Assembly: GCA_964474435.1 (NCBI GenBank)
Contig: CAYYSI010000002.1
Coordinates: 92,260 to 156,259, forward strand
Direction of reading: 5' to 3'
Source: an uncultured Candidatus Saccharibacteria bacterium
Lineage (GTDB): Bacteria; Patescibacteriota; Minisyncoccia; Phycocordibacterales; UBA9973
DNA length: 64,000 nucleotides
Position 1 is the stretch's first letter. Each line of letters opens with the position of its first letter. The translations under genes and the position numbers were made by a program. The notes below the pieces were generated by a model. It saw nothing but the letters and a program-made list of their open reading frames with translations, was not told the DNA's origin and made no database searches. Of the stretch, positions 1,719 to 52,474 are shown one piece after another.

Positions 1719-1973
1719 ATGACTACAGACGACGATTTTAAAGAATTAACAGGACCTGATGCACTCGATGTGAGTGCAGGCGATGCCGATGGTATTGTCG
1801 AAATCGATGAAGAAGAAGTTCCTGCAGTCGTCGAAGACGATGCTTTAGAAACTGATGGGTTTGGGCTCAACGGTCGTCCAAAAGAAGATGGTGAAGAAGC
1901 AGAAGACCCTGATGATGACTACTCTGCAATGGAAGCATTGCTCATGGAAGCAAACGGCTGGGAAGAACGATAA
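1719..1973 (+). CDS. small acidic hypothetical protein (D/E-rich)
   Basis: 84-aa ORF with ATG start, followed by a hairpin terminator; no recognisable domain. Confidence 0.35.
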   Translation: MTTDDDFKELTGPDALDVSAGDADGIVEIDEEEVPAVVEDDALETDGFGLNGRPKEDGEEAEDPDDDYSAMEALLMEANGWEER

Positions 1974-1974
1974 A

Positions 1975-2003
1975 TAAAATCTCCTCATATCGAGGAGTTT
2001 TTA
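1975..2003. terminator. bidirectional rho-independent terminator
   Basis: aaaat-CTCCTC-atatc-GAGGAG-tttttatttattt hairpin flanked by A and T tracts, lying between convergent genes. Confidence 0.6.
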
Positions 2004-2004
2004 T

Positions 2005-2436
2005 TTATTTCTTTTCTGCTCGTTTCTCGACACACTTGGGACAGAGACATCCTTTTGGTTTGATGTATTCGTTCCAGTATTCTTTGCCGTAGTCATAGCA
2101 GAGCTCTTCACCAGGAGCAATGTTCTTGATCGCAGAAATATACACACGACCTGCTGCAGTATCAGGCTCACAATTGGCGCGACATGAGTGGTTGATATAG
2201 CGTGCGATATTTTTGCGTGTGGTGCCATCGATGTGGCGATTGGATGATGTCTCAAAGAGATATCGTCCGCCACGTCGGTTTGCTTCGGCGGCAGTGATCA
2301 CTTCTCCGAAGTATTCGATGACACAGTCGCCCTTTTTGATCGGTACCTTTGCAAAGAGACCGAGGCCATTGATGCCGCGTTTGACGACGAGGTCGTGTGG
2401 GGTTTTGTATTTGGGGACATATTTTGGGGATGACAT
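2005..2436 (-). CDS. SET-domain protein (putative protein-lysine methyltransferase)
   Basis: Motifs GxG...YINHSCxPN-like (RYINHSCRANCE), ELCYDYG and a C-terminal Cys cluster (post-SET). The ATG at 2436 was chosen because the longer track ORF overlaps the upstream gene and has a low-complexity N-terminus. Confidence 0.7.
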   Translation of the reverse strand: MSSPKYVPKYKTPHDLVVKRGINGLGLFAKVPIKKGDCVIEYFGEVITAAEANRRGGRYLFETSSNRHIDGTTRKNIARYINHSCRANCEPDTAAGRVYISAIKNIAPGEELCYDYGKEYWNEYIKPKGCLCPKCVEKRAEKK

Positions 2437-2452
2437 GAGTGAAAAGTATACC

Positions 2453-3310
2453 TTATGCTCGCCATTTGGCGTAGATACCTGTCGAGAGGACGCGATCGCT
2501 CTCTGATTGAATAATACCAATATCACCATATGAAATAGTTCCTGTCGGCAATACTTCATGGAGAAGCTCTCCAAATGTTCGTGCGGAGTATCCTGATGCA
2601 TAGCCGTTGAGGATGACGAGTTTTGCATTTGGTGAGAGGAGTTGTGGGATGAGGGTGAGGAATTCTTTGAGGGATTCTTCGATTTTCCATACTTCCCCTT
2701 TGGGGCCGCGACCAAATGCCGGTGGGTCCATGACGATGACTTCGAATGTTTCCTCGCGCTGTATCAAACGCTTTGCGTATTTAAATGCGTCTTCACAGAT
2801 CACTCGAACTGAGTCTTTTGAAAGTCCTGACTGCAAAATATTTTCTTTGACTGTCTCAATTGTACTTTTGGATGCATCGACATGGGTTACTTGCATACCA
2901 GCGATCGCTCCGGCAACGCTCGCAGCTCCTGTGTATCCAAAGAGGTTGAGCATGCGCAACCCTGTGTGCTTCTTGCCAAGTGCGAGCAATTCTTCCCATT
3001 GATGTGAGTGCTCGGGAAATATACCGATATGTTTGAATCCTTTCAGTGAAAGCGCGAGTGTCATATCTTTCCAATCGATGTTCCATGATTCTCCAACACC
3101 ATTTCCAAGCTTCCATCGCTCCCCTTTATCTGCCCAGACAAACTGTGCTTGTGCATCTACCCATGCGCTTGGATGTGAAGTATTCCAGAGTACTTGTGGA
3201 TCAGGACGATCGAGGAGTACTCCACCGATGCGCTCAAGCTTCCTGCCATCTCCCGAGTCGATAAGCTCGTATTGATCCCACCCTTTTGTTGTCACATCTT
3301 CTCGTTTCAT
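2453..3310 (-). CDS. class I SAM-dependent rRNA methyltransferase (RlmI/RlmK-like)
   Basis: GYTGAASVAGAIAG SAM-binding motif, an upstream PUA-like region and the DPPAFG motif typical of RlmI-family 23S rRNA m5C methyltransferases. Confidence 0.7.
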   Translation of the reverse strand: MKREDVTTKGWDQYELIDSGDGRKLERIGGVLLDRPDPQVLWNTSHPSAWVDAQAQFVWADKGERWKLGNGVGESWNIDWKDMTLALSLKGFKHIGIFPEHSHQWEELLALGKKHTGLRMLNLFGYTGAASVAGAIAGMQVTHVDASKSTIETVKENILQSGLSKDSVRVICEDAFKYAKRLIQREETFEVIVMDPPAFGRGPKGEVWKIEESLKEFLTLIPQLLSPNAKLVILNGYASGYSARTFGELLHEVLPTGTISYGDIGIIQSESDRVLSTGIYAKWRA

Positions 3311-4209
3311 TATTTTTTAACTGCAGCTGCAAGTGCCTCGGGAAGTGTTGGATGTGTGAACACAAAGCCTTTGTCGATCAATAGTTGTGAGCTCACGCGC
3401 TGACTTCGTGTCAGTTCGCTCATAAAGTCGCCAAACAGTGCCTTCGCGATGAACTTTGGAATAGTACCGAGTACTCGTCGATGTATTGCTTGCCCAAGCA
3501 TTTGCATAAACGTTGTGTGCATGACTTGCTGTGGTGCTGCAGCATTGACGAAGCCTTGGAGTGTCGACGTCTGAAGCGCAAAGAGGTAGGTGTTGACGAT
3601 GTCGTCCTCGTGAATCCATGGCTGCCAAAAATCTTTTTTGGAAAGCTTTAAAAGAAATCCAAATCGTGCACTTCGACGCAACTGGGCGATCATGCCGCCG
3701 TGCCCCACGACTGGCGCAGTGCGTATACAGACAACACGTGTCCCAAAGCTCTCTGCCTTGTGTGCTTCTGCTTCCCATGCAGCCACAACATCGGCGAGAA
3801 ATCCGCTGCCTTGCGGTGAGCGCTCTGTGAGTTCTTCACCTCCTCGCTCTCCATAAAACCCAACTGCAGATGCATTGATGAGGATGCTCGGTCGGCTCGT
3901 TGCCCCCTGCATGCTCTCGACGATATGGCGCGTGCTTATGATACGACTGTCGCGAATTGCCTTCATCTTTTCAAGGGTCCATTTTTTATTGATTGGCTCG
4001 CCGACAAGGTTGATGACTGCATCGGTGTGCTCAAGTACGTTGAACGGGAGCTGCTGCGTCGTGATGTCGCATTGGATGAAGAAGAGTTGGGCATGGGTAA
4101 AGACTGGCGGGAAGCGATCAACGACGATCACGGTGTCCCCAAGGGCGAGAAGTTTCTTTGCGAGTTGGGTTCCGATGAAGCCAGAACCTCCTGTAAGGAC
4201 AATAGTCAT
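3310..4209 (-). CDS. TIGR01777-family NAD-dependent epimerase/dehydratase (YfcH-like)
   Basis: N-terminal Rossmann motif TGGSGFIGTQL; length and C-terminal DUF1731-like region. Confidence 0.7.
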   Translation of the reverse strand: MTIVLTGGSGFIGTQLAKKLLALGDTVIVVDRFPPVFTHAQLFFIQCDITTQQLPFNVLEHTDAVINLVGEPINKKWTLEKMKAIRDSRIISTRHIVESMQGATSRPSILINASAVGFYGERGGEELTERSPQGSGFLADVVAAWEAEAHKAESFGTRVVCIRTAPVVGHGGMIAQLRRSARFGFLLKLSKKDFWQPWIHEDDIVNTYLFALQTSTLQGFVNAAAPQQVMHTTFMQMLGQAIHRRVLGTIPKFIAKALFGDFMSELTRSQRVSSQLLIDKGFVFTHPTLPEALAAAVKK

Positions 4210-4380
4210 AATAGTCTAATGGTATCACGCGCCTCCATAGCCGTATGTGGTACACAACAAAATAGCCCTGGCGTCATCTTTTCCCGGAAGTAGATCTTGG
4301 TATAACACTTTGTGCATGTTGCAGAACAACAATCCCAAGGCTCACTTCCGGGTTTTGCAAAACCTATGATCTAGGCTAGT

Positions 4381-4548
4381 ATGCGGCGTATGGATACCTT
4401 CCTCGATATCGCCGAAACCGTGCTTTTGGCAATACTCAACTTTGCATACTTTGTGATACTCTCACTGATCTTTTTGCCTGCGTTTTTCATCGTCACCTAT
4501 CTCCAAAAAACATGGGAGGAATCGATGAAAAAGACACTCGGGCTCTAG
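4381..4548 (+). CDS. candidate small membrane protein (55 aa)
   Basis: ATG...TAG ORF below the track cutoff, with one hydrophobic helix (VLLAILNFAYFVILSLIFLPAFFIV); speculative. Confidence 0.2.
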   Translation: MRRMDTFLDIAETVLLAILNFAYFVILSLIFLPAFFIVTYLQKTWEESMKKTLGL

Positions 4549-9055: not shown

Positions 9056-10147
9056 TTAACGATTGGTTGGCATCAAGAGATAGAGGAAACTTGTGTCATT
9101 TACACTACGCACGACGATCGGTTTATTGGGAGTAGTAAATGAGAGTGAGACACTATCACCTGGAAGCGCTTGAAACACATCGAGGAAATACTTAAGATTA
9201 CAAACAACTTCGATCGGATCACCCTGGACAACTGAGTCAATAATAGAAAGTGATGAGCCGACGTCACTATTTTTAGAACTAATGCTGATCTGTTTTGATT
9301 CGGGATTGATCATAAATATGACTTGGAAAAATTTATCCGCGAATATAGTGGAGAGTTTGAGAGTGTTGAGGAGGTCTTGCTTCATCACGACGACCTTTGT
9401 ATTTTCTTCTTTTGGGATAATAAGCTGATATGGGGGAAATCCTCCATCAATGAGCCTAGATGTGAAATAGACACCATTTCCGCTCACTGAGAGCTGATTG
9501 CGAGTATATGAGATACGAGCAGTGTCTCCACAGACTTCGAGTGCACGAAGGAGATCGGCAATATTTTTATATGGAATTAAAATCTTGGAAATATCAGGGA
9601 AGTTTTTAATGACAACCTTTTTCTCTGCGAGGCGGAATGAGTCAGTTGCAACGAGATAGAGTGTGCCTCCTTCGGCATAAATATAAATACTTGAGATTTC
9701 GGGTTTGATCTCACTCACTGCTGCTGCAAAGTACACTGACTTGATCGCGTCTTGGAGGACTGTTGTCTTTATTTCTACAACATCTCCTTCAACTACTGGA
9801 AGCGCTGGGAAATCTTCTGGAAGAAGGGACTTGATGACCGTGGTCGTCTTTTGGGAAGTGATGGTGAGATTATCGTTTTCGAGTGTGAGTGTTACATCGC
9901 CCGTGAGGTTACTGCAGACATTGGCGAGGATATCCCCTTTGATCACGACAACACCATCTGTTTCGACTGCTGCTGCGATCTCTACTTCAATACCGACAGT
10001 GAGGTTAGTTGATCGGATCTTGATAGATTTACCTGTGGCCTGCAAAAGAATGGAATGAAGAATAGGAAGCGTGAGATGTTTACCCGTCATGCGATCAGCG
10101 AGTGTTACGGCATTTTTGAGTTTTTCTACTGAACAAGTAACTTTCAT
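9056..10147 (-). CDS. dnaN: DNA polymerase III beta sliding clamp
   Basis: Three-domain, 363-aa beta-clamp architecture; located immediately downstream of dnaA. Confidence 0.9.
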   Translation of the reverse strand: MKVTCSVEKLKNAVTLADRMTGKHLTLPILHSILLQATGKSIKIRSTNLTVGIEVEIAAAVETDGVVVIKGDILANVCSNLTGDVTLTLENDNLTITSQKTTTVIKSLLPEDFPALPVVEGDVVEIKTTVLQDAIKSVYFAAAVSEIKPEISSIYIYAEGGTLYLVATDSFRLAEKKVVIKNFPDISKILIPYKNIADLLRALEVCGDTARISYTRNQLSVSGNGVYFTSRLIDGGFPPYQLIIPKEENTKVVVMKQDLLNTLKLSTIFADKFFQVIFMINPESKQISISSKNSDVGSSLSIIDSVVQGDPIEVVCNLKYFLDVFQALPGDSVSLSFTTPNKPIVVRSVNDTSFLYLLMPTNR

Positions 10148-10339: not shown

Positions 10340-11683
10340 TCATTTAAACATGATACGGATATCTTCGAGTTCTTTCATGAGATGTGGGTCGCGATCAAGT
10401 TCATTTTTAATTTTTTCATAGGAGTGAATGACAGTGGTGTGATCTTTTCCACCAAGTTTTGCACCGATTGATGGATAGGACTCATTGAAGTCTTCTCGAA
10501 GGATAAACATGATCACTTGGCGAGCTTTCACAATCTCTTTACGGCGTGTCTTTTCATAGATCACTCGCTCATCAAGGTTGTAATACTCAGAGATCGACTT
10601 CACAACTGTGTCGACCGATACAACTCGTCGTGGTTTAACGCTATTTTTAATCAATACCTTCACCTCAGTCAAGCTTATCGGCTTTTGTTTGACCTCAGTG
10701 TGCACTGAAATGACATTGAGTACACCTTCAAGCTCTCGAATACTACTTGTCACAACTGAGGCAATATAGAGGAGGACGTCTTCGTCGAGTGGGTGCGGGA
10801 GTTGGGCACTCTTTTCGCGCACAATCGCAAGTCTACTCTCGAGATCAGGCTCTTGGATGTCGATAGTCATACCGGCATTGAAGCGAGTCTTGAGACGGTC
10901 TTCGAGGCCAATAATATGGTTTGGGTGTTTATCAGAAGAGAAAATAATATTTTTCCCCTGCTCATAGAGCGCATTGAAGAGATGGAAGAGTTCTGTCTGG
11001 GTCCCCTCCTTTCCTGAGACAAATTGAATATCATCAATAATAAGAACATCAACCTTGCGGTATTTTTCACGGAAGGTATTGGTACGATTAGTTTGAACAG
11101 AACTCGTATAATCATTCATAAATTTCTCCGCAGTAGTATAGAGGACGCGCTTATCAGGAAAGAGTCGCTTCATCTCGTTCCCTACTGCTTGAGTGAGGTG
11201 GGTTTTACCAAGACCGCTCGCACTATAGAAAAAGAGTGGGTTATACGCGTGTTGTGGGTTTTTCACGACTGCTTGGGCTGCGGCATACGCAAGTTCATTA
11301 AATGGTCCAACAACAAAGCGATCAAAGGTGTATCGAGGGTTAAGGTTGTCGTCGCGGTTAATATAGACTTGTTGGAGTGGAAGCTCAGGCTTTTCTTCAA
11401 TACTTTTTGGTTGTACTGGTTGTGGAGCAGAGATTTGGCCGATAATGAACTCAATCCCTCGGATATGGTCCAAGTGGTCTACAATCGTCTTTAAGATGAG
11501 TTTGTGGTACTTGGTGATCATCCACTCACGGACGAATTCATTGGGGACAGTGATGTAAATGATCCCCTCTTCCTCTTTATTGATTGCAGTATTTTTAAAC
11601 CAAGTAGTGAAGTTTGCCTTGGTGACCTGAGGTTCGATTTCTTGTAGGCAAGTCTCCCAGAGTTGTAATACTGATGTATCCAT
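10340..11683 (-). CDS. dnaA: chromosomal replication initiator DnaA
   Basis: AAA+ Walker A GLGKTHL, Walker B LIIDDIQF, and a C-terminal DnaA-box binding domain. Confidence 0.95.
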   Translation of the reverse strand: MDTSVLQLWETCLQEIEPQVTKANFTTWFKNTAINKEEEGIIYITVPNEFVREWMITKYHKLILKTIVDHLDHIRGIEFIIGQISAPQPVQPKSIEEKPELPLQQVYINRDDNLNPRYTFDRFVVGPFNELAYAAAQAVVKNPQHAYNPLFFYSASGLGKTHLTQAVGNEMKRLFPDKRVLYTTAEKFMNDYTSSVQTNRTNTFREKYRKVDVLIIDDIQFVSGKEGTQTELFHLFNALYEQGKNIIFSSDKHPNHIIGLEDRLKTRFNAGMTIDIQEPDLESRLAIVREKSAQLPHPLDEDVLLYIASVVTSSIRELEGVLNVISVHTEVKQKPISLTEVKVLIKNSVKPRRVVSVDTVVKSISEYYNLDERVIYEKTRRKEIVKARQVIMFILREDFNESYPSIGAKLGGKDHTTVIHSYEKIKNELDRDPHLMKELEDIRIMFK

Positions 11684-11827: not shown

Positions 11828-11962
11828 ATGTCACAAACCTACCAGCCAAATAAGCGAAAACGAGCAACAACACACGGATTTTTGGTCCGCTCTGCCTCTG
11901 TAGGTGGCCGCAAAGTCCTCAAAGCACGTCGCCAAAAAGGCCGCGCCAAGCTCGCTGTCTAA
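11828..11962 (+). CDS. rpmH: 50S ribosomal protein L34
   Basis: Manual translation gives [44 protein letters not shown]; below the track cutoff. Confidence 0.85.
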
Positions 11963-11972
11963 CCCCTCTCCT

Positions 11973-12296
11973 ATGCTTCCTAAAACAGAACGGCTCTCTC
12001 GTGCTCAGTTCTCAGAAATCCTTACAAATAAAGGCTTTTTGACCATTTATAACCGTCTTGGGACGCTCAAATATGTGCCTTCTAGTACTAAACAAGCACT
12101 TTCTGTAGTCACCAGTAGTAAGCATGAGAAAAAGGCCGTAATCCGCAATAAGCTCCGCCGCCGCCTGTATTCCCTATTTGGGAAGGAAAAACGCGCTATA
12201 ACGGGCATTTTCTATACTGCAAAGGGGTCATATGCGTTCAGTTATCCTGAAATACAAACACTTTTTAATGAATTACTCAAAAAGACTACTAAATAA
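11973..12296 (+). CDS. rnpA: ribonuclease P protein component
   Basis: Follows rpmH; basic protein with KLRRRLY; internal ATG at 11973 chosen because the track ORF overlaps rpmH. Confidence 0.75.
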   Translation: MLPKTERLSRAQFSEILTNKGFLTIYNRLGTLKYVPSSTKQALSVVTSSKHEKKAVIRNKLRRRLYSLFGKEKRAITGIFYTAKGSYAFSYPEIQTLFNELLKKTTK

Positions 12297-17260: not shown

Positions 17261-19069
17261 CTATCGGTTCTGTTCGCTAAATTCTTTCTTTGCGGCACGT
17301 ATGGAGATGACTTGGGATGGGTCAGATGTGATGATCTGGTCTTCGGTATATGATGCAATGATTTTGATCGCGACATGTTTGAGTCCGGCAAAGAAGATGC
17401 CCTCTCCGACACCACTCTCGAGCAAGAGAAACTTCTCTTCATCAGTGAGGTTGAATGTTTTCTGGAGTACATCCATAGTTGAGGGAGATTGTTTGAGCAA
17501 AAGTTGGATCGATGAGTTGGTGACGATTGGTACGCCATACGGGCTCTTCATGAAGTCCCCCACGTCTTGGGTGATAGTACAAAGTCCGAGATAGTATTTA
17601 CGGCCTCGCTTTGCGATTGAGTACAGGAACGATGCAGTGTCGTCTGACTTCATCATCCACCACGCCTCATCCACCACAAGTAGACGCTTCTTGAGTTCTT
17701 TGCGCACTGCATTCCAAATGAAGTGCGTGACGATGTACATCGCCGCTGGCTTGAGATCGTCTTCCATGTCGCGCACAGAGAACACGACGAACTTTTTGTT
17801 GATGTCGACGTTTGTTGGTTGGTTGATAAATGTTGCCCATGAGCCGTGTGTGTATTTGGTGAGACGCTGAAGTATGGACTCAGTCCCCTCCATACCAGAG
17901 AGCACCATTTCAAAGTCAGAAAGGAGTGGCGGTTCGATTGTTGCGAAGTCGCTTTCGGGTGTGATGTCTTTCAATGAATACGTTTCGGTAATCGCACGGT
18001 CGATGATCGAGTCTTCTTCAGGACTTAGTCCCCCAAGCATGATACGAAAGAGTCCGACAAGGTTGATGATGTTGGAGCGAAGTACATCTGCTGGGGACTC
18101 GTCCACACGAGGTATTGGCAGGTCAAATGGATTGATGTGGTTGTCAGACGAAAGTGAGATATTGAAATATCGTCCCCCGATTGCTTCTGCGAGGTATTCG
18201 TATTCGCGCTCTGGGTCAATGACGATCACGTCGGTATCAAACATCAGCGTTCGGATAATTTCAAGTTTAGTCGCATAACTTTTTCCGGCACCAGACTTCG
18301 CAAAGATGATGGAGTTGTAGTTCTCAAGTGAAAAGCGATCAAAGATCACAAGGGATGAGTTGTGACGGTTCACACCATAGAGAATGCCAGTGTCCCCTGT
18401 CAGGTCAAATGATACGAAGGGAAACATACTCGATATTGGTTCAGAGTTGAGCTTCTGAGTGATACCAAGCTTGTCAGTCCCAAGTGGTACGACGGTTTTG
18501 AACCCATCTTCTTCTTGAAAGAGCGCCGGTTTGATGTAGATCATCTTGGATTCGAGCATGCTCTTGATCTCGCTCTCGGTGCGGAAGAGATCATTTTCAT
18601 TGTCGGCATAGATCGAAATATAAAAGCCGATGTTAAACATCTTTTCTTGGGCTTGAGTGAGATTGTCACGGAGTTCTTCGAGGTCTTGGTACGCAGTATC
18701 GAGCATTGGGTCGCGCACAAGTCCCTTTTGCTGGCGGACGATGATCTGACTTTCTACCTCTGCAATTTTCTTTTGGAAATGTTTGAGGAGCTCAGAGGTC
18801 TCGATCGGGTTGACGTAGATTGCCACATCAAAGATCTTGTCGAGGTTGATGATTGGCGTGAACCAGTTGTCGGTGAGGTATCGTGGGTATGCGATCACAA
18901 AGAATGTGCGCACGGTCTTGTCACCAATGCGCATGGACTTGGGCGTGATCTCGATTGCAGACGGCGCGATCTTGTCTGCGAGCTCCATGGTCGCCCATTC
19001 ATACACTTCTTCGGGAAGAATAGGGAGTTTTTTATTTACTTTTTTGTCGTTCGATCCAAAGAGTGCCAT
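17261..19069 (-). CDS. VirB4/TraC/TrbE-family type IV secretion ATPase
   Basis: Walker A FAKSGAGKSY; Walker B LLVVDEAWWMM (the DEAW signature of VirB4/TraC AAA_10); 602 aa. Confidence 0.7.
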   Translation of the reverse strand: MALFGSNDKKVNKKLPILPEEVYEWATMELADKIAPSAIEITPKSMRIGDKTVRTFFVIAYPRYLTDNWFTPIINLDKIFDVAIYVNPIETSELLKHFQKKIAEVESQIIVRQQKGLVRDPMLDTAYQDLEELRDNLTQAQEKMFNIGFYISIYADNENDLFRTESEIKSMLESKMIYIKPALFQEEDGFKTVVPLGTDKLGITQKLNSEPISSMFPFVSFDLTGDTGILYGVNRHNSSLVIFDRFSLENYNSIIFAKSGAGKSYATKLEIIRTLMFDTDVIVIDPEREYEYLAEAIGGRYFNISLSSDNHINPFDLPIPRVDESPADVLRSNIINLVGLFRIMLGGLSPEEDSIIDRAITETYSLKDITPESDFATIEPPLLSDFEMVLSGMEGTESILQRLTKYTHGSWATFINQPTNVDINKKFVVFSVRDMEDDLKPAAMYIVTHFIWNAVRKELKKRLLVVDEAWWMMKSDDTASFLYSIAKRGRKYYLGLCTITQDVGDFMKSPYGVPIVTNSSIQLLLKQSPSTMDVLQKTFNLTDEEKFLLLESGVGEGIFFAGLKHVAIKIIASYTEDQIITSDPSQVISIRAAKKEFSEQNR

Positions 19070-20169: not shown

Positions 20170-20703
20170 TTATTTTTCGGGGATTTCGCGATACGGATCG
20201 ATCGATTTGATGCCACTTGGTGCAGTTGATGGAGCCGATGTTGTATTGAGTGAAGTATTTTCACCATACGAACGCTTGGTTGGAGCAAGAGTCGATGGAG
20301 CGGTCATAGTTTGGTTGAGACGAGTAAATGAGTTATTTCCAGAAGCCTCTGCTTCAGACAACTCAACCTCTTCGTTTTGTGCATATCCATCTATAACTAA
20401 ATCAAAGATTTTATCAGTCACATTGTTTTTAACCCAATTTATAATTATCTGATTCATCTCCGGTGAAGTACTAATGGATCGGATACGATTAACCAGAGTT
20501 TCTTCTGTTTCTACTTGTGCTATATAACCATATAGAGTTCCTCGAAATAGTGATATCGTCTCTGATGTTAGTCGTTGTTCTTGGCAGAATTCAGTAAACG
20601 CTTTTATAAAAGAATCACTATAAATGTAATCCTTCACTTCCTCAGGAATTTTATTGAAAGACTCTTCTATTTTTTGCAAATTTTCATCCATATTATTTTC
20701 CAC
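20170..20703 (-). CDS. acidic hypothetical protein
   Basis: Track start is GTG at 20703 (alternative ATG at 20691); overlaps the upstream gene stop by 11 nt. Confidence 0.4.
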   Translation of the reverse strand: MENNMDENLQKIEESFNKIPEEVKDYIYSDSFIKAFTEFCQEQRLTSETISLFRGTLYGYIAQVETEETLVNRIRSISTSPEMNQIIINWVKNNVTDKIFDLVIDGYAQNEEVELSEAEASGNNSFTRLNQTMTAPSTLAPTKRSYGENTSLNTTSAPSTAPSGIKSIDPYREIPEK

Positions 20704-23700
20704 TCTCCTTCTCTTTATTTTCGCGCTTTTCCTTTATTTTTTCCAACTCATTTTCTTTCTTTGCAAGCTCACTCTCAAGACGACTCTTTGTTTCATCGTT
20801 AAGTTTGTTAAGGTCTTCTCTATGTTTTTCTTTCTGCATATAAAGATCATTTCTATCTGCCTCGAGATCTTCGGCTTCTTTTATTTTTCCTGCGCGTCTT
20901 GCTATACCTGCTCTATTATCTAAGTCGCGAATATTATTTTCCATGACATCAGTTTTTGCTCTGAGACCTCTCTTGTACATCTCCATAGTTTCTTCCTTGT
21001 CTTTTTCGCTGTCATATGAACCTTTTGTTTTGCCTTTGTATTTCTCAAAGGCTTTTTCGCCAGCGTTTGCTCGATCAATCATTTGATCAAAGAATGCACT
21101 AAAGCCACTTGTTACTGTGTTAAGTTGTTTGTTTAGCTCTTCAAGTTTTTTGTCGATTATTTTCTTTTCGTTTTCAATTCGATCCTCTTTTGATCCAAAC
21201 TTACCTTTCTCTCTTTGATCTTTAGCATCATCAACAAATTTCTTTGCAACGGAAACATCACTCTTATTCTTTCTACTCTGATCATAGAGAAATGCCCCTA
21301 AAGCGCCAGTAGTAACTCCCGCAGCGGCAAAGCCACCAGCCCCAAGTGCTGTCCCTACGCCACCCGCTGTACCAACCGCTGCAAGAGGTTTTCCAGCTTG
21401 TTGACCAAATGTTTGCCCTGCAGCAATAGTCTTTGCAAACTCAACGCGCAATGCTTGAGTGAGCTGTTTGTTGGTTTCGACTGTACCGTGTTCTGTCTTG
21501 AGCGCTTGAACTTTTTTAGCAACATTATCTTCATATGTTGCATCTTTAAATTTATTGGTTTTCTTCATCTCAGCGATTTCTGCTGCAGTCTTTCCTTCTG
21601 CCTTGAGTTCTTCAAGTCGTTTTGACTCCGCTTCTTTGTGTGCAATATCACTGAGTTTCTTGTTCCAGAAATCCTTCGCATCAGTATCTTTGAGATCTGT
21701 TTTGAGAGATTCAATCTTCTTTTTAGCATCATCCTTCTCTTTCTTTTCAACAGCTTTCATACCTCCTTTTGTTGCATCTTGTCCAAGGTTGAATAATCCA
21801 CTCACTTTGTCGTTGAGCTTAACTCCCATTTGTTTGCTTGCAGTATCGCTTATTTTACTGAATGCAGATGTCTTTCTAAAATCGAAACTACCAGTCTGTG
21901 CCTTGTCATTGAATCCAAGACGAAGGCTTGCGATTCTGCCACTAATACCTCCCTCTGCCTTTTGTTGCATCAAGTCAGCGCGTTTGTTTTCACTAAGTTT
22001 AAGTGCGCCGGCAAGGCGTGTACCAGCAAATGCTGCACCACCAGTTGCAACGCCAAGCGCTGCCCCACCAATAAATCCCGTAGCTTTTTCTGCATAACCC
22101 TGGATAAGTTTTCCTGCTTCACCTGCATAGTCTTCAGCAATTTTCACACCTTTCTTAATCATCATGTAGACAATAAGCATTGGAATAGCGATATAAATAA
22201 CAGTTTCCAAGAAATTTGATCCCGAGTTTACGTTGGTAAACCCAGTAATGAAATCCGAATCAATAAATGAATAAATGATGTATAAGAAAAAGACAAATAT
22301 AGGAGCAAGCAAGGCATACATCGTAGTATCGCTGAGCCACTTGTCCCATGAAAATTCTTTTATCTTACTTACAATCGGCATATTACCTTTGCTGAGAAAG
22401 GCAAAGGGTGAAAATATCATTGCAATGTAGAGGCCGATGACGCGACCAAGAAAGAAAAATGCGGTCTTCCAAAACATCATAGCGACAGCAAAGAGGATTG
22501 TCGCAGCAATCAAGCTCACAATAATATAATATGTCGCGTAGTCGTTTCTATTGAGAGGATTAGTTTTTTCACTATCACTCGAAGTATCATCAAATGTTAC
22601 TGTTCCGTTTACCCCCTTGGTACTTCCTGTTGCATTTTCTACATTCAAAACTTGTGTCGAGAATATTTTTTGTGGATTGAAAGAGGATACTATTTTTTCA
22701 GAGAGTGGTTTGTAGTTGCCAACACCTACCTTGAGATTGGTGATAGATCCATCTGCTGCTTTTACACACTTACCCTCACAGACTTCGACTGAGTTATAAA
22801 AGACTCGAGCGGTGACATTGGAGATATCGATGATTACACGTGTCGCAAAGAGACTAAAGTTGATCAATAGTGCATTGAGGATCAGGTTTGGAAGCACCTG
22901 CTTCATGTTCGACTTGTTACTAAAGACCGTCATGAGCCCTGTGTACACCAGAATTATAATGAAGAAAATATTGGAAATATCTCGCACAAGCTGCCATCCA
23001 CGAACTGCAAAGTCGGCACGGTATGATGCGTCGTTAAGCGAATACCCTAAAAAGAAATCAAAGAGCATACCAAAGAGCCCTGCAAACCAACTGATCGGAA
23101 CATAAATAGCGTAATATACGAGCCATGCAATACAGCCGACAAAGGATCCTTCCCCAGGGCCGGCACCGTTGAGGATGTGGCAGTTTGGAAGTGTCGATGA
23201 CGGTGAATCAACTAAGTTGACTGGAGTAACAGGAGTATCTGTTTGGGAAAGTGCGGCCGCATCAGTTGCTGGCATTTGAAACTGCTCTGATTGAGCAATC
23301 TTGAAGTAGGGTTTTCCGTCACCACAGAGATTGTTGAAACTATGAATACTTGATGTCGTAGTATTTGAATCAAGTGTCTGGCCGTTAGTGTTATCTCCGC
23401 AATACCACAGATCTGCTTGGTATTTTGTTGGATCACCAATCTTAAACTTATTTGCCTTTGTGATATTTGTTCCAAGTGTTCCAGTGCTTGATAATGGTGC
23501 AAGGTCTGAGATTTTAAATTGAACATTAAATTTTGAGTACTGATCATCAAGCGCACTTAAAATACCATTAACTCCTTGTGCTCGATAATGATAGATCTTT
23601 GTTGTTGGTTCAGTTTCTGTGGGGGCCGTACAAACACCATTGCTACAGTACGGAGTACCGTCTGCTTTTTGATCGATATTAGTAGGGGCAGTGCTATATG

Positions 23701-24187
23701 GTACAACAGAAAAAAGACAAGCATTTTCGTCTACTGCACCAGTTGAAGCGCTCACATCACACAAGCGTAGAATAAAAACTTTTGATGTAGCGGTAGGGGC
23801 AAAATCTTTAATATGATCCCAATGCCATTTTTTATTTTGATCGTTGGTAATCTTAAAGCTTCCTTGGAAATTGAATTTGAAATAACTAAGTGCCTGTGCA
23901 GGCGTTGTTGATTGAGGAGTTGTTGTAGGGGTACCTGGTGTTTGAGTAAGTACAGAGCCGGAGGGTGCATTCACAGTAACCGCTTGTTGCATTGTCAATT
24001 TTAATGCAGGGTCGGTTCCGTCAAACAGATTCACATACTCATTAAATACACCTACTTGCGCAAACGCCGGCATCACATTCCCTACCACCACAAACAAAAA
24101 GACAAGCGTTAAGAGCGCTGTCTTTGAGATGCGTTTGCATGATCGCAGTATTGCAATACTAATCCTTCGAACGGAGCGTGCTTTCAC
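20693..24187 (-). CDS. giant VirB6/TrbL-like polytopic membrane protein with N-terminal surface domain and C-terminal charged coiled-coil tail
   Basis: GTG start with signal/TM segment. About 330 aa extracellular region, then 8 or more TM helices with TrbL/VirB6-like spacing. A roughly 450-aa K/E/A-rich low-complexity tail follows. Confidence 0.5.
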   Translation of the reverse strand: MKARSVRRISIAILRSCKRISKTALLTLVFLFVVVGNVMPAFAQVGVFNEYVNLFDGTDPALKLTMQQAVTVNAPSGSVLTQTPGTPTTTPQSTTPAQALSYFKFNFQGSFKITNDQNKKWHWDHIKDFAPTATSKVFILRLCDVSASTGAVDENACLFSVVPYSTAPTNIDQKADGTPYCSNGVCTAPTETEPTTKIYHYRAQGVNGILSALDDQYSKFNVQFKISDLAPLSSTGTLGTNITKANKFKIGDPTKYQADLWYCGDNTNGQTLDSNTTTSSIHSFNNLCGDGKPYFKIAQSEQFQMPATDAAALSQTDTPVTPVNLVDSPSSTLPNCHILNGAGPGEGSFVGCIAWLVYYAIYVPISWFAGLFGMLFDFFLGYSLNDASYRADFAVRGWQLVRDISNIFFIIILVYTGLMTVFSNKSNMKQVLPNLILNALLINFSLFATRVIIDISNVTARVFYNSVEVCEGKCVKAADGSITNLKVGVGNYKPLSEKIVSSFNPQKIFSTQVLNVENATGSTKGVNGTVTFDDTSSDSEKTNPLNRNDYATYYIIVSLIAATILFAVAMMFWKTAFFFLGRVIGLYIAMIFSPFAFLSKGNMPIVSKIKEFSWDKWLSDTTMYALLAPIFVFFLYIIYSFIDSDFITGFTNVNSGSNFLETVIYIAIPMLIVYMMIKKGVKIAEDYAGEAGKLIQGYAEKATGFIGGAALGVATGGAAFAGTRLAGALKLSENKRADLMQQKAEGGISGRIASLRLGFNDKAQTGSFDFRKTSAFSKISDTASKQMGVKLNDKVSGLFNLGQDATKGGMKAVEKKEKDDAKKKIESLKTDLKDTDAKDFWNKKLSDIAHKEAESKRLEELKAEGKTAAEIAEMKKTNKFKDATYEDNVAKKVQALKTEHGTVETNKQLTQALRVEFAKTIAAGQTFGQQAGKPLAAVGTAGGVGTALGAGGFAAAGVTTGALGAFLYDQSRKNKSDVSVAKKFVDDAKDQREKGKFGSKEDRIENEKKIIDKKLEELNKQLNTVTSGFSAFFDQMIDRANAGEKAFEKYKGKTKGSYDSEKDKEETMEMYKRGLRAKTDVMENNIRDLDNRAGIARRAGKIKEAEDLEADRNDLYMQKEKHREDLNKLNDETKSRLESELAKKENELEKIKEKRENKEKESGK

Positions 24188-25170: not shown

Positions 25171-27483
25171 TTATAGATGACTATAGAAATACACGCTCGA
25201 ATCCTCCGATGTTTTAATAAATGGATCCGGAGTTGCAGTGATGTCTTCGAGATGTGACAACCCTGCAGGGATAGGACCTATCTGGTATGCATTGTCGATA
25301 CATGAGAGCTTCACTGGAGTTCCAGCAGCTGCTTGTGCATCGATATAGTCTGCTTTTGCTCGCGCAACAATACGCTCTACTTCTTGGTCAATGGCTATGA
25401 GTTCGGTGAGCGCATCTTGTGTTGTCTGAATGTTGGTATTGTACTGTTCGTTGTATGCAGCGACACCTTGCGCATAGCCGACGAGGTTTCCTGTTTCTTT
25501 GATCGAGTCCTTGATGTCGCCAGTGATGAGTGCTGCATCAGCCGGAGAGGTCGCCGTTGCAAGGAAGGCATTAGTGATTGCTGTTTCGCTATAGAGATCG
25601 TTGTACTTTGATTTCAAAAGCGTCAAGATATCATTGAAATAATATCCCATGAAGTCTGAACCCGTGATGCCGTTGGTTGCATATCGTCGGTCACTGATTT
25701 TCTTGAGACCGAAGTCAACTTTGTCAAAGAGTGACCATCGCACGAGCGCGTATCCTGCAAGTTCTTCGAAGTCACTGGTGTCATTGCCACCGAGTGTTTG
25801 TCCTGGGTCGAGGATATGGTGAATGTAGTCGATCTGGCCATCAACGGTCTTGGTCACTGGCTGCAAACCTTCGAGGAATGTTTGGGTATTTTCATTGAGG
25901 TTATTGTTCCAGGTTGGATTTGGTCCAGGGATACAATAATCGAGCGCGCCGAGTCGAGGAACGAGCGACTTCATGACGTGCTGCGCATCTTGGCTACGAG
26001 TGAGGAAGTTCTTTTGAGTGAGGATCACTGCGCGAAGCTGTTGGGGGCGACTGATATCGAACTCCTGGTTAAATCCACCTGTTGTTGCGTCATATCCAAG
26101 CGGTGTCTGACAGGCAGTTGCGCTTGCAAGTGTCTGGCCATTGGTACCGAGGACGACATTGCTGCCGATCCCCCCGGGTACGGTCGATGCTGCTCTGCCG
26201 CGTCCTGAGCCAGTGATGCCGTCAGTGAGCAAACGATTCATGAGTTGATCAAAGAATGTACCGAGCACTTGGTTGATCTTGTTAGTATTTTCAAGTTGGC
26301 GCACTGTTGAGTTAGTGATACTTGAAACCTGAGCTGAAATAAGAGAGCCAGGAGTTACTGTTTCGTAGCGCAGACACTTTGGAGCTTTTGTTGGAGATGC
26401 TGCTTGAGTCCCTGTTTGGTATCCACCTGTATATGCAGCACACTGTGCTTGATTTGTTGCAGCACCTCCAACGCTGGTGCAGCATGATGCGTAGTTAGTG
26501 GAAATGATCACACTGCAAGATCCTCCTGCAGTTGGGACGCCGTATGTTGTCGATGCTGTAGCTGTTGAAGTAACAGCTGTCTCGTACTCAGCACATTTTT
26601 TCATACTCAAGAATCCCCCGCCTTGCTGAAGTTCATCTTTTACATTTTGTTGTGCAGTGTCGATGATGCTATTGAGTTCGTCTGTTGCATTAAAATATGC
26701 GCCCACAGGATTGTTTTGAGGATTGAGGAATGCATTCCAGCCACCTTTGGTGAAGTCGCTTTGGAAGTCTTGGTATGCTTTGCCTTCAGGTGTATTCATC
26801 GCCTTGTTGAGGAGGCCATCAGAGTATCCGGTTGCCTGCTGTTTGAGTACAGATTTGAGAGCATTGCCAAATATTGGATTACTATTGCCGACATAGGTAT
26901 TGAGATAGCTATCAAGTTTTTCATTTTTAATAGTCTTGAGGTATGAGTCAATATTGCGTACATAAAAGGGGTTGCCACCAAATCCAGTCTTGACCCAGTT
27001 GAGTGTTTTGTCCGAGAGCTTGGAAAGAGCGGTCTTGGCAACGGCATCTGCTGCACCATTGAGACACTGTTCACGTTTTGTTGTTTTTTCAAGCTCTGCC
27101 TGAGATTTCTCCGTTGCGGTCTGTGTAGGCTTGTCCCCCGTTGGCACTGTTTGTGAGGTATTGGTGTTGCTACTCGTACTAGTTTTCTTATTAGTACTGC
27201 TAAAAAGACTCTTTGCCGCATCTGAAATAGCACCGCCGACATTGAGACAGCTCGCAAGAGCACCTCCGATACCGTTGAATGTGATACCACTATATGTATT
27301 ACCACTAAGACCAGAGCCTGTACCTGGAGTGAAGTTGCTTCCACCGATAGATGCAGCACTTGCACAGTTACAGATGTTGCCGCCTGGTGCGACCGATCCA
27401 TCTGAACACAGCGGATCAGCGTGCGCAACCATTGGAGTTGCCAACAGTGCGAGAAGTATGAAACTAAAGAAGGCAGTGCGCAT
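25171..27483 (-). CDS. large secreted Cys-containing hypothetical protein
   Basis: Signal peptide ending VAHA; 770 aa with no recognisable catalytic motif. Confidence 0.45.
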   Translation of the reverse strand: MRTAFFSFILLALLATPMVAHADPLCSDGSVAPGGNICNCASAASIGGSNFTPGTGSGLSGNTYSGITFNGIGGALASCLNVGGAISDAAKSLFSSTNKKTSTSSNTNTSQTVPTGDKPTQTATEKSQAELEKTTKREQCLNGAADAVAKTALSKLSDKTLNWVKTGFGGNPFYVRNIDSYLKTIKNEKLDSYLNTYVGNSNPIFGNALKSVLKQQATGYSDGLLNKAMNTPEGKAYQDFQSDFTKGGWNAFLNPQNNPVGAYFNATDELNSIIDTAQQNVKDELQQGGGFLSMKKCAEYETAVTSTATASTTYGVPTAGGSCSVIISTNYASCCTSVGGAATNQAQCAAYTGGYQTGTQAASPTKAPKCLRYETVTPGSLISAQVSSITNSTVRQLENTNKINQVLGTFFDQLMNRLLTDGITGSGRGRAASTVPGGIGSNVVLGTNGQTLASATACQTPLGYDATTGGFNQEFDISRPQQLRAVILTQKNFLTRSQDAQHVMKSLVPRLGALDYCIPGPNPTWNNNLNENTQTFLEGLQPVTKTVDGQIDYIHHILDPGQTLGGNDTSDFEELAGYALVRWSLFDKVDFGLKKISDRRYATNGITGSDFMGYYFNDILTLLKSKYNDLYSETAITNAFLATATSPADAALITGDIKDSIKETGNLVGYAQGVAAYNEQYNTNIQTTQDALTELIAIDQEVERIVARAKADYIDAQAAAGTPVKLSCIDNAYQIGPIPAGLSHLEDITATPDPFIKTSEDSSVYFYSHL

Positions 27484-50833: not shown

Positions 50834-52474
50834 ATGACGCATTCACGCGCTCAACTTTTCAGTACTCATAGACGCACACTTGCTGCACTCATGTTTGGGC
50901 TCGCATTTTCTGCGGTTGTTGCGTACGCGACACCACCAGGGAGTGCATATACGCCCGCCGAAACACTCGATCCCATCTGTGTCCCAGGAAGTGCATTTTG
51001 TACAGTAGATATTAGTGCGGGGTCTCTCATTGGTTCAACATCTACTAATGGTACAGAGACGTGGCTTGGGACGAGTGTGGCTGGGCTTGGGGCGGCATCA
51101 ACTGATCACACTGTTTTTATTGGGATTGATGCAGGGATAAGTGCAAATGATAGTGAGTATTCTAATTTCATGGGATATCAGGCAGGCGCAGGGTCGACAA
51201 CGACACACTCGTCCACATTTATTGGTACAAATGCTGGATACCAAGTGAGTAATGCTTCAAATGCGGTATTTATCGGTTCCGAAAGTGGATCAACGGTGAC
51301 AAATGCAGGGGGTTCAAACTTCATCGGCTATCAGGCGGGCCTCAATGCAATAAATGCTACCACATCCAACCTCATCGGCTATCAGGCAGGACTGAATAGT
51401 TTTTCAGTGGCTGTTGCCAACGTCATCGGTAATGGTGCGGGGTCTGGTGCTACTGCTGCACCCTTCGTTAATTTCATTGGAAACAATGCAGGGTTTAATT
51501 CGTCGGATACGAGTAGTTCAACCTTTATAGGGTATAACACAGGTGGAAACGCAACCCATGCACAGCACTCAGTCTTTATTGGAACACAGACAGGAGCTAA
51601 TTCTACAGGAGCAACGAATGGAATATTTCTAGGAAGAGAGGCTGGCCTAAATGATACCGTTGATAATACTACCGACCAAGATGACTACTCAATACTTATT
51701 GGTCTTCGTGCAGGAACAGGAGGATTTGAAAACAGTATTGCAATCGGCGCATACGCAACAAACACTGCGCTAAACCAATTTATGATTGGTTCTGCAACGC
51801 GTCCGATAAATGAAATGGTCATCACCGGAACTGGGGGGCAGTCATGTACGATTCGCCCGGATACTGCAGGTATCAACTGTTCATCTGATCAAACACTCAA
51901 AACAAATATTACTGATTTAGAAAATGTACTCGACACACTCAGTGATGTGCGCACGGTCATGTACAATTGGAAAAATACTCCAAACACCAATGCGCAAATC
52001 GGATTTCTTGCACAAGATCTCAAGGAGTATTTCCCAACACTTGTGTCTCGTGCATCAAATGGGTATCTCCAGGTCAACTATGCAGGCATGACACCGATCC
52101 TCACAAAGGCGATCCAAGAACTCAATCTAAAAGTAGAAGGTGCGTTTGATATTCAGAAAAACAATACCTTTGCCGGAAATATGCGTGCATGGTTTGCAAA
52201 CACTTCAAATGGCATCGCAAAGATGTTTGCGGGTGAAGTAGAGACAAAGAACTTGTGTGTCTCTGACGATACAGGCGAGCGAACATGTATTACGAAGTCA
52301 GACCTCGACGCACTTCTTGAAAATGCACACCTCACTCCATCGTCTCCAGAACCAGTACCGACACCTGAAATACCTGTAGTCCAAGATGAGCCGGTTGACC
52401 CAGTACCAACTGAGGATGCGACTGAACCTATGGTTGATAGTACAATTGATACACCACCAACACACAATGAATAA
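50834..52474 (+). CDS. secreted tail-fibre-like paralogue with Hep_Hag-like FIGYQAG repeats and C-terminal Peptidase_S74 IMC domain
   Basis: The first ~60 aa and the 5' region are near-identical to the upstream paralogue. There are about 10 degenerate 14-16-aa repeats (NFIGYQAGLN...). The C-terminus reads CSSDQTLKTNITDLEN...GFLAQDL. Confidence 0.65.
   Translation: MTHSRAQLFSTHRRTLAALMFGLAFSAVVAYATPPGSAYTPAETLDPICVPGSAFCTVDISAGSLIGSTSTNGTETWLGTSVAGLGAASTDHTVFIGIDAGISANDSEYSNFMGYQAGAGSTTTHSSTFIGTNAGYQVSNASNAVFIGSESGSTVTNAGGSNFIGYQAGLNAINATTSNLIGYQAGLNSFSVAVANVIGNGAGSGATAAPFVNFIGNNAGFNSSDTSSSTFIGYNTGGNATHAQHSVFIGTQTGANSTGATNGIFLGREAGLNDTVDNTTDQDDYSILIGLRAGTGGFENSIAIGAYATNTALNQFMIGSATRPINEMVITGTGGQSCTIRPDTAGINCSSDQTLKTNITDLENVLDTLSDVRTVMYNWKNTPNTNAQIGFLAQDLKEYFPTLVSRASNGYLQVNYAGMTPILTKAIQELNLKVEGAFDIQKNNTFAGNMRAWFANTSNGIAKMFAGEVETKNLCVSDDTGERTCITKSDLDALLENAHLTPSSPEPVPTPEIPVVQDEPVDPVPTEDATEPMVDSTIDTPPTHNE

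Follow-up and report, generated by a model that had tools for sequence, protein, structure and literature searches.

A gene for a small SET-domain protein lies directly downstream of an rRNA-methyltransferase-like gene on a contig of an uncultured Candidatus Saccharibacteria bacterium, within an analysed stretch of 64,000 nucleotides (the window). The locus raises the question of which protein such a SET enzyme would methylate and whether its neighbour indicates the target. The SET gene is real and strongly conserved in this ultra-small Patescibacteria bacterium, and it fits an already-known protein class. In our preferred reading, with a probability of about 0.6, the product would be an active, cytoplasmic, stand-alone SET protein-lysine N-methyltransferase with a housekeeping role, acting on a nucleic-acid-associated protein of its own cell, and the pairing would reflect inherited gene order.

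The SET-domain protein-lysine methyltransferase gene occupies positions 2005..2436 on the minus strand, running from an ATG at 2436 to a TAA at 2007-2005. It encodes 143 amino acids, with a SET core, a post-SET segment and short Lys-rich N- and C-terminal tails. The predicted pI is 9.3 (homologue median, 9.4). The earlier note on this DNA had recognized the gene but given its length as 144 aa, which the ORF coordinates correct to 143 aa. The ATG at 2436 also matches the 143-aa gene call of a 99%-identical homologue (P0001). Longer starts (an in-frame TTG at 2715 and an ATG near 2529) were rejected, as they would run into the methyltransferase gene, and the residues gained do not resemble the Lys-rich extensions seen in homologues. 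Inspection of the N-terminus revealed neither a signal peptide nor a hydrophobic segment. A Pfam scan detected no ankyrin or other targeting domain, for which a protein of 143 aa has no space.

The SET assignment was confirmed by the Pfam model PF00856, which matches over its whole length (positions 1-105 of 105) with an E-value of 6.6e-24 and 84.8 bits (cut-off 22.4). The AF2 model of the protein (pLDDT 76.3, pTM 0.70) was searched against the PDB with Foldseek, and the top 50 matches were all SET domains, with probability 1.0 and TM scores of 0.65-0.72, MLL3, MLL1 and SET1 among them. No rival non-SET fold appeared among these top matches, so the SET plus post-SET domain described earlier is genuine. 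The best solved relatives are the SET domains of MLL3, SET1, MLL1, ASH1L and EZH2, with E-values down to 2e-17.

The SAM-binding and catalytic motifs GxG, motif II Tyr, (R)xxNHSC and ELxYDY are all present in the SET protein. In an alignment with 24 relatives, G24, G26, Y42, Y59, R79, N82, H83, C85, Y114 and Y116 are invariant. The equivalents of yeast Set1 G951, Y967, Y993, R1013, N1016, H1017, Y1052 and Y1054 are likewise all present and invariant in these relatives. Set1 activity is abolished by Y967A, N1016A, H1017L/R and Y1054A, and Y1052 is the Phe/Tyr switch (PMC3585878). The switch rule has exceptions, in that Set1 and MLL complexes trimethylate despite Tyr (PMC3585878). This counts against the preferred reading, and any product state assigned here would be a prediction. 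A further point against it concerns Set1 F1056, whose alanine mutant is null (PMC3585878): the aligned residue in the SET protein is Lys, with aromatics two to three positions further on.

The post-SET cysteine cluster C130-x-C132-x-x-C135 is encoded at 2032..2049 (minus strand), and C85 of the NHSC motif by the codon at 2182-2184; all four cysteines are invariant in the 24 relatives. By analogy with the established post-SET architecture, they are predicted to coordinate zinc as a Zn(Cys)4 site, closing off the lysine channel. Their CxCxxC spacing differs from the eukaryotic CxCx4C, and the model around residues 121-130 is of low confidence (pLDDT about 51). In the proposed mechanism, SAM would occupy the pocket of GxG (G24/G26), Y42 and, within ARYINHSC, N82-H83. 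The target lysine would enter a channel lined by Y59, Y114 and Y116, and the cluster of C85, C130, C132 and C135 would shut this channel. The substrate would be an abundant protein of the cell itself, either a nucleoid or a ribosomal/translation protein.

The same features bear on whether the domain might serve here as a binding module without catalytic activity, or might have a substrate other than a protein. Such a reading would accommodate the non-canonical post-SET spacing and the missing channel aromatic equivalent to Set1 F1056, but all SAM-binding and catalytic motifs are family-invariant and dN/dS is 0.02-0.04. Pseudo-enzymes usually lose catalytic residues. We regard this alternative as very improbable.

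Compared with its nearest relatives, the SET gene has a dN/dS of 0.02-0.04, and its synonymous sites are close to saturation. Identity to the nearest species-level relative is 92% for the SET protein, 83% for RuvB and 71% for the adjacent methyltransferase. Small bacterial SET proteins were found in at least 588 species-level genomes and form 3,447 clusters at 90% identity, which overturns the earlier description of bacterial SET proteins as uncommon. With such a low dN/dS and thousands of homologues, the SET gene is well beyond chance. Large contigs labelled as Gammaproteobacteria, Chitinophagales, Spirochaetota and Alphaproteobacteria carry close homologues, with 52-61% identity. Placement relative to eukaryotic and bacterial SET proteins was based on identity levels and on the length distribution of the nearest clusters. 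A literature search combining 'SET domain' with Patescibacteria found no paper. With Candidate Phyla Radiation, the only match concerns, by its title and abstract, death and TRADD-N domains.

The neighbouring gene (2453..3310, minus strand) encodes a 285-aa class I SAM-dependent methyltransferase of the PUA-less COG1092 (RlmI/RlmK/RlmQ/RlmO) fold group, orthologous to PDB 2IGT. The named enzymes modify 23S rRNA at m5C1962 (RlmI), m7G2069 (RlmK), m7G2574 (RlmQ) and m5C1942 (RlmO). The protein matches the RlmI/RlmK-type methyltransferase family (PF10672; E=1e-10) and combines a Rossmann methyltransferase core with a preceding beta-rich (EEHEE/beta-hairpin) module, as this fold group requires. 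The fold, N-terminal beta-domain included, is common to RlmI, RlmK, RlmO, SMU.776 and a mitoribosomal LSU assembly factor. RlmKL and RlmI are the best-scoring NCBIfam models, each far under its cut-off; the RlmI model NF011707 gives 51.2 bits where 712 are required, with alignment confined to the methyltransferase core (residues 82-232). No PUA family was detected at E<=0.01 in the Pfam scan, and about 105 residues precede the Rossmann core, versus about 210 in RlmI.

The catalytic Cys of E. coli RlmI, needed for m5C chemistry, sits in FSCSG of motif VI (PMC10870370). The neighbour carries LNGYAS where RlmI carries this motif, and Cys is absent from positions 190-206 and 228-245, which cover motifs IV/VI, in all 122 family members. 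Lacking both the PUA domain and the catalytic cysteine, the neighbour is not an m5C enzyme. Orthology to RlmI is ruled out by these two absences together with scores far under the NCBIfam cut-offs. Identity to RlmI, RlmK, RlmQ and RlmO is 16-20%, and every NCBIfam cut-off is missed. Thus, of the RlmI-like 23S rRNA m5C-methyltransferase proposed in the earlier note, the shared fold of these rRNA enzymes stands, while the RlmI identity and the m5C chemistry do not.

The neighbour shows full-length, orthologue-level similarity to 2IGT. This Agrobacterium protein is its true orthologue and is itself uncharacterised. A literature search on 2IGT found no paper on its function; the sole match deals with the structural-bioinformatics tool ALEPH. 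The substrate of the neighbour is probably RNA. Its core also matches the defence-system methyltransferase model mad2 in PADLOC (E=6e-18, model positions 271-400 of 492). PADLOC gave no match for SET or YfcH and no further system components beside the mad2-like core. A defence-system reading was rejected, given the SET protein without a match and a mad2 likeness limited to the core.

The stop codon of the methyltransferase gene (2455-2453) and the SET ATG are separated by a spacer at 2437..2452 (minus strand), read directly as 16 nt, with no obvious Shine-Dalgarno sequence. The same-strand upstream arrangement had been reported correctly, with a spacing of 17 nt that is amended here. Further upstream, positions 3310..4209 (minus strand) encode a YfcH-like (TIGR01777) NAD-binding epimerase-family oxidoreductase with a DUF1731 C-terminus (TIGR01777, 255.6 bits, cut-off 207.35; Pfam Epimerase PF01370 and DUF1731 PF08338). 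Its stop codon overlaps the methyltransferase ATG by 1 nt. A scan of both strands for terminators, with the sequence read directly, located a GC-rich hairpin, CTCCTC-GATAT-GAGGAG, with T-runs on both strands, at 1981..1997. The hairpin lies 7 nt past the SET stop, is common to the SET gene and a convergent 84-aa ORF, and is predicted to be a bidirectional intrinsic-terminator-like site.

Because the YfcH gene overlaps the methyltransferase start and a terminator follows SET, the yfcH-like oxidoreductase (first), the PUA-less COG1092 methyltransferase and SET (last) probably form a three-gene operon. Co-transcription of the pair, as first suggested, is plausible in view of the 16-nt spacer, the terminator past SET and the spacing in 21 syntenic loci (median 18 nt). 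The promoter of this unit is presumed to lie at 4210..4380 (minus strand), where a consensus scan found no sigma-70-like site. A conserved small membrane-protein ORF at 4381-4548 (plus strand), divergent from yfcH and kept in loci L081 and L084, marks the unit as transcribed separately from TyrRS.

Conservation of the gene pair was assessed across 80 species SET loci. The pair is present in 24, all inside one Paceibacteria clade, and in 5/5 loci reached from the methyltransferase side. These syntenic loci (24 + 5) keep the whole region of ~8 kb collinear in the order PBP1-TyrRS-YfcH-MTase-SET-RuvC-RuvB. At the other 56 SET loci, which span Patescibacteria and other phyla, neither the methyltransferase nor YfcH was found within 5 kb, even at E<=0.05. 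Their neighbours are mixed and include an ABC transporter, SMC/RNase III, phosphoketolase/acetate kinase, TruB, HPF and NusG-L11. An attempt to derive a target from these neighbours was abandoned, as none was recurrent and the commonest cluster (10 loci) is an uncharacterised protein. The pair is thus conserved within one clade and missing from most SET loci. It is a gene order inherited within that Paceibacteria clade; it does not characterise the SET family and is by itself no sign of a shared substrate. Since the pair is limited to one collinear clade, gene context provides no independent evidence for a ribosomal target. The ribosome-associated target that the earlier note had drawn from the pairing is possible but gains no support from gene context. 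Mere synteny is not proven either, because a genuine functional link would also give tight co-transcription throughout a clade as well sampled as this one.

Such a link would be expected if the two enzymes served the ribosome together. The COG1092-type enzyme would methylate 23S rRNA, SET would methylate a ribosomal protein or a factor bound to the ribosome as the same subunit is assembled, and the genes would be co-transcribed as their products act on one particle. The fold that the neighbour has in common with rRNA methyltransferases and a mitoribosomal assembly factor is consistent with this, and to our knowledge every COG1092 member of known function acts on 23S rRNA. The yeast Rkm1-4 proteins, which are SET enzymes too, methylate ribosomal proteins. 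The pair is adjacent with short spacing in all 29 clade loci examined, and the SET protein is basic. SET genes elsewhere sometimes adjoin translation genes, namely nusG-rplK (L061 and L076), HPF (4 loci) and TruB (about 4), but such occasional adjacency is expected because these tiny genomes devote a large share of their genes to translation. The adjacency is also not specific, since TyrRS, YfcH, RuvC and RuvB are equally stable neighbours in the pair-bearing clade, and the 56 of 80 SET loci without such a methyltransferase within 5 kb argue against a joint role. Moreover, the RNA substrate of the neighbour is itself deduced, as its core also resembles mad2. Taken together, we consider a ribosome module rather doubtful. 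That SET and the PUA-less COG1092 enzyme constitute a dedicated ribosome-modification pair throughout a large clade of ultra-small Patescibacteria, one for a ribosomal protein or bound factor and the other for 23S rRNA, is distinctly unlikely.

A different target would follow if the protein were a secreted nucleomodulin-like effector that methylates proteins of the episymbiont's host cell, in the manner of LegAS4/RomA, NUE, BtSET and BaSET. Patescibacteria are typically host-dependent, T4SS-like ATPases are encoded in the window, and the sole NCBIfam match of SET is the LegAS4 model NF043024 (E=1.3e-8). Characterised bacterial SET proteins are mostly effectors (PMC10117894). The LegAS4 match, however, reaches 34.1 bits where 550 are required and aligns only the SET core (positions 31-143 of the 439 in the model). 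The protein has no signal peptide, hydrophobic N-terminus, ankyrin or other targeting domain, its gene has a housekeeping context, and the homologues at 52-61% identity on contigs labelled as four other bacterial groups do not suit this reading. Purifying selection is very strong, unlike in typical fast-evolving effectors. A secreted effector was set aside on the missing signal-like segment and the LegAS4 score, and is highly improbable. The preferred endogenous, nucleic-acid-associated target is suggested by the basic character of the protein (pI 9.3), its Lys-rich tails and the lack of an export signal.

Small SET proteins that stand alone are widespread among bacteria, both free-living and symbiotic, and nearly all experiments concern the secreted effectors of pathogens. 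In these organisms, whose genomes are very small, the SET protein ranks among the most conserved proteins of its neighbourhood; this suggests that the lysine methylation is endogenous and important to the cell. Identification of the target would give bacterial SET enzymes a housekeeping function; an rRNA-methyltransferase-like neighbour is confined to too narrow a lineage to support an inference about the target. A ribosome pair, if true, would give a bacterial SET enzyme its first conserved housekeeping substrate, and the 2IGT-like methyltransferase family its first function. The practical gain is small, because public MAGs already annotate the two genes as 'SET domain-containing protein' and 'class I SAM-dependent methyltransferase'.

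Among known systems, the effectors LegAS4/RomA (Legionella), BtSET (Burkholderia), NUE (Chlamydia) and BaSET (Bacillus anthracis) have the SET catalytic core in common with the protein described here. It differs from them in lacking ankyrin repeats, an NLS and a secretion signal, and in its housekeeping context and strong purifying selection. LegAS4/AnkI-type Dot/Icm effectors have a SET plus ankyrin architecture of about 440 aa, to which the protein does not conform. The closest solved structures belong to the KMT2/SET1 group (MLL3/KMT2C, MLL1 and yeast Set1), with 34-39% identity across some 115-135 residues. The ARYINHSC and GEELCYDY motifs of MLL3 are identical in the SET protein, and the fold (Foldseek probability 1.0, TM 0.65-0.72), the Tyr at the Phe/Tyr switch and the post-SET Cys cluster are shared. 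In contrast to KMT2/SET1, the protein stands alone at 143 aa without N-SET, Win motif or other partner-binding regions, its SET-I insert is about 8 residues shorter, its post-SET spacing is CxCxxC instead of CxCx4C, Lys replaces Set1 F1056, and the bacterium that encodes it has no histones. It does not belong to the KMT2/SET1 (trithorax/COMPASS) subfamily, which is also characterised by dependence on WRAD-type partners and a histone H3K4 substrate, as only a SET/PR-type domain was detected, with nothing beyond the core and the short Lys-rich tails. The best functional analogy, drawn from descriptions and not from sequence, is with Methanosarcina mazei Go1-SET and Chlamydia pneumoniae cpnSET. 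These are small prokaryotic SET proteins that methylate basic DNA-binding proteins of their own cells, MC1-alpha and Hc1, respectively (PMC3980110).

The SET gene (2005-2436, minus strand) runs from an ATG at 2436 to a TAA at 2007-2005 and encodes a 143-aa protein. In a Pfam profile search, the protein matches PF00856 over the entire model (E=6.6e-24; 84.8 bits, cut-off 22.4), and its only other match, to the related PR/SET family, is below threshold. On its 5' side, a 285-aa class I methyltransferase (MTase) gene (2453-3310, minus strand) has its stop codon 16 nt from the SET ATG. The MTase ATG in turn shares 1 base with the stop codon of the gene for a YfcH-like oxidoreductase (3310-4209, minus strand; TIGR01777, 255.6 bits, cut-off 207.35). 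The earlier description of a SET gene with a same-strand 5' neighbour is borne out, as is the SET identity by HMM search, while its figures of 144 aa and 17 nt were each off by one. A GC-rich hairpin with T-runs on both strands (1981-1997) lies 7 nt past the SET stop, and a terminator scan scored it in both directions, common to SET and a convergent 84-aa acidic ORF. On the 5' side of yfcH, a 171-nt gap is followed by a divergent 55-aa membrane-protein ORF (4381-4548, plus strand). Given these adjoining or overlapping genes, the terminator past SET and the divergent ORF past yfcH, yfcH, MTase and SET form one compact unit apart from TyrRS.

The 84-aa ORF (1719-1973, plus strand) is extremely acidic (pI 4.05) and has no Pfam match. 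ORFs of 81-83 aa occupy the matching position in L081-L083, which are among the loci reached from the MTase side. The 55-aa predicted membrane protein, located between TyrRS and yfcH, includes the sequence IFLPAFFIVTYLQKTW; its sequence and position are kept, without annotation, in L081 and L084 (48-51 aa).

In an alignment of the SET protein with 24 relatives (mean column identity 60%; residues numbered from Met1), the invariant residues include G24 and G26 (GxG), Y42, Y59, R79, N82, H83 and C85 (ARYINHSC), Y114 and Y116 (EELxYDY), and C130, C132 and C135 (CxCxxC). The invariant SET residues match yeast Set1 G951, Y967, Y993, R1013, N1016, H1017, Y1052 and Y1054. The nearest solved proteins by sequence are the SET domains of MLL3, SET1, MLL1, ASH1L, EZH2 and NSD (E down to 2e-17). 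The AlphaFold2 model (pLDDT 76.3) matches SET domains only (probability 1.0, TM 0.65-0.72), sharing 34-39% identity with MLL3 and MLL1. SET has a basic pI of 9.3 (the median across 120 homologues is 9.4), and many homologues have Lys-rich N- or C-terminal tails. Between SET and its nearest species-level relatives, pS is about 0.7, near synonymous saturation, with pN of 0.04-0.11 and dN/dS of 0.02-0.04. The closest relative shares 92% identity in SET, 83% in RuvB and 71% in the adjacent MTase. The SET gene is real and highly constrained.

The MTase matches PF10672 in Pfam over the Rossmann core only (E=1e-10). No NCBIfam model reaches its cut-off, the best being RlmKL, through its RlmK half (72 bits, cut-off 466), with RlmI at 51 (cut-off 712). 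Homologues are labelled '23S rRNA (cytosine1962-C5)-methyltransferase' by JGI and 'class I SAM-dependent methyltransferase' by NCBI. The orthologue-level match is PDB 2IGT (E=1.6e-53, full length), an Agrobacterium structural-genomics protein without assigned function, for which a literature search returned no match beyond a paper on a structural-bioinformatics tool. In a comparison of related proteins, 2IGT scores 35.1 (279 residues), RlmO, SMU.776, RlmKL, RlmI and TTHA1280 score 20.3-21.9 (230-249 of 285 residues), the trypanosome mitoribosomal LSU assembly factor mt-LAF24 scores 18.4 (233 residues), and generic class I methyltransferases score at most 17.2 (about 170 residues). These comparisons indicate that the MTase and the RlmI/RlmK/RlmQ/RlmO-type (COG1092) rRNA methyltransferases have an N-terminal beta-rich module in common, whereas the PUA domain is missing from the MTase. 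The m5C chemistry of RlmI requires the Cys of its FSCSG motif, and RlmQ, with Asn in place of that Cys, produces m7G (PMC10870370). Among 122 members of the MTase family, none has a Cys in the regions of motifs IV and VI; the window MTase reads LNGYAS at the motif, and its sole Cys (position 172) is kept in just 60% of members. This argues that the MTase, judged by its motifs, is RlmI-like in fold only and not an m5C enzyme; the rRNA-methyltransferase likeness proposed in the earlier note holds for the fold and fails for the m5C activity. The MTase core also resembles mad2, a PADLOC model for the MADS defence system (E=6e-18 over model positions 271-400 of 492), with a score between its RlmI and RlmKL scores, which shows that defence-associated methyltransferases, too, employ a COG1092-like core. 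By analogy, the MTase substrate may reasonably be taken as RNA, probably rRNA, but the mad2 likeness makes this assignment less than secure.

A SET-side scan of GTDB, with each species represented by a single genome, retrieved at least 588 species-level genomes with a confirmed SET relative within the first 600 matches to the search pattern, and the best 80 loci were examined. Among these, 24 (L001-L022, L034 and L049; SET identity 59-92%) display, collinear with the window, the order PBP1-TyrRS-YfcH-MTase-SET-(0-3 inserted genes)-RuvC-RuvB, with a median MTase-to-SET spacing of 18 nt. The other 56 (SET identity 50-66%) have no MTase or YfcH up to 5 kb away at thresholds as loose as E<=0.05, and their gene neighbours are heterogeneous. 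They represent further Paceibacteria and Parcubacteria lineages, together with large contigs that carry the labels Chitinophagales, Gammaproteobacteria, Spirochaetota, Caulobacterales and Hyphomonadaceae. From the MTase side, three homologues at 68% identity led to five loci, and in each of them SET follows the MTase directly within this syntenic block. Inside one well-sampled clade the pair is therefore invariant, its link being no better conserved there than the links to TyrRS, YfcH and RuvC/RuvB, and pairing with the MTase is not a SET-family property.

Collectively, the best-supported reading of SET is a housekeeping lysine methyltransferase with a SET domain, active and located in the cytoplasm. 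Its target would most likely be an endogenous, abundant, nucleic-acid-associated protein, and from Tyr at the Phe/Tyr switch (Set1 Y1052; PMC3585878) the predicted products are mono- or di-methylated, although exceptions are known. Ala at Set1 Y967, N1016 or Y1054 abolishes activity, as does H1017L/R (PMC3585878). A non-catalytic role for the window protein is unlikely. Most characterised bacterial SET proteins are secreted effectors (PMC3980110, PMC10117894); the N-terminus here has no hydrophobic segment, and we give export as an effector very little credence. A ribosome-coupled SET and MTase is consistent with the partner's rRNA-methyltransferase-like fold, the tight operon and the occasional adjacency of SET to nusG-rplK, HPF or TruB in other loci; it is a less likely possibility, and the gene context fits inherited synteny equally well. 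The observation in the earlier note thus stands, and its interpretation in part.

In two of the 56 non-syntenic loci, both from Patescibacteria (L061 and L076; about 5400-6950 in L076), SET lies directly upstream of nusG and rplK on the same strand, an anecdotal occurrence. The rplK product, L11, is a classic methylated ribosomal protein.

Clustered at 90% identity, the proteins retrieved by a word-indexed search form 3,447 groups; NCBI and JGI name them 'SET domain-containing protein', and most belong to Nomurabacteria and Paceibacterota. In an exhaustive search of 50%-identity representatives, the number of clusters rises from 33 at E<=1e-30 through 1,081 at E<=1e-10 to 9,975 at E<=1e-3, and those nearest to the window SET are almost all stand-alone proteins of 100-250 aa. 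The window SET is an uncharacterised member, already annotated as a SET-domain protein in public MAGs. Its cross-phylum conservation is unusually high, which suggests either that it spread horizontally or that its function is very tightly constrained. Seven loci (L038, L039, L050, L064, L067, L069 and L080), on contigs of up to 839 kb with the same five non-Patescibacteria labels, encode SET proteins 52-61% identical to that of the window. One 264-aa representative (P0241; E=3.5e-81) has two SET matches, apparently because the small SET protein was duplicated in tandem or fused.

Elsewhere in the window, tandem paralogues of 757 and 546 aa (48536-50809 and 50834-52474, plus strand) have nearly identical N-termini (MTHSR..LFSTHRRTLAAL) and Peptidase_S74 'chaperone of endosialidase' domains (E=1.5e-17 and 7e-15, respectively), and look like tail-fibre-type surface proteins. 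A 740-aa ORF with a CarboxypepD_reg domain (52386-54608, plus strand) overlaps the 546-aa ORF by 89 nt. Type IV secretion or conjugation-type ATPases are encoded at 17261-19069 (minus strand; TraG P-loop/VirB4-like domain, E=6e-25) and 57244-59949 (minus strand; 901 aa, weak coupling-protein family matches). Two very large ORFs of 1164 and 770 aa (20693-24187 and 25171-27483, minus strand), whose N-termini resemble signal sequences, lie immediately downstream of the cluster with the VirB4-like ATPase and match no Pfam family at E<=1e-3. Candidate dnaN-like (9056-10147, 363 aa) and dnaA-like (10340-11683, 447 aa) genes on the minus strand, recognized by position and N-terminal sequence, are listed with an ORF at 11904-12296 (plus strand). 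Cumulative GC skew is low around them, and given these candidates the chromosomal origin may be within about 10 kb of the SET locus.

A literature search for SET domains in Patescibacteria found nothing, and one for the Candidate Phyla Radiation matched, by title and abstract, only death and TRADD-N domains. By 2014, SET proteins had already been counted in more than 500 bacterial genomes, and two SET proteins have endogenous chromatin-protein targets, Hc1 for cpnSET and MC1-alpha for Go1-SET (PMC3980110, PMC10117894). Compared with eukaryotic SET enzymes, the window protein has no flanking domains, a shorter SET-I insert, CxCxxC rather than CxCx4C post-SET spacing, and Lys at the position aligned with Set1 F1056.
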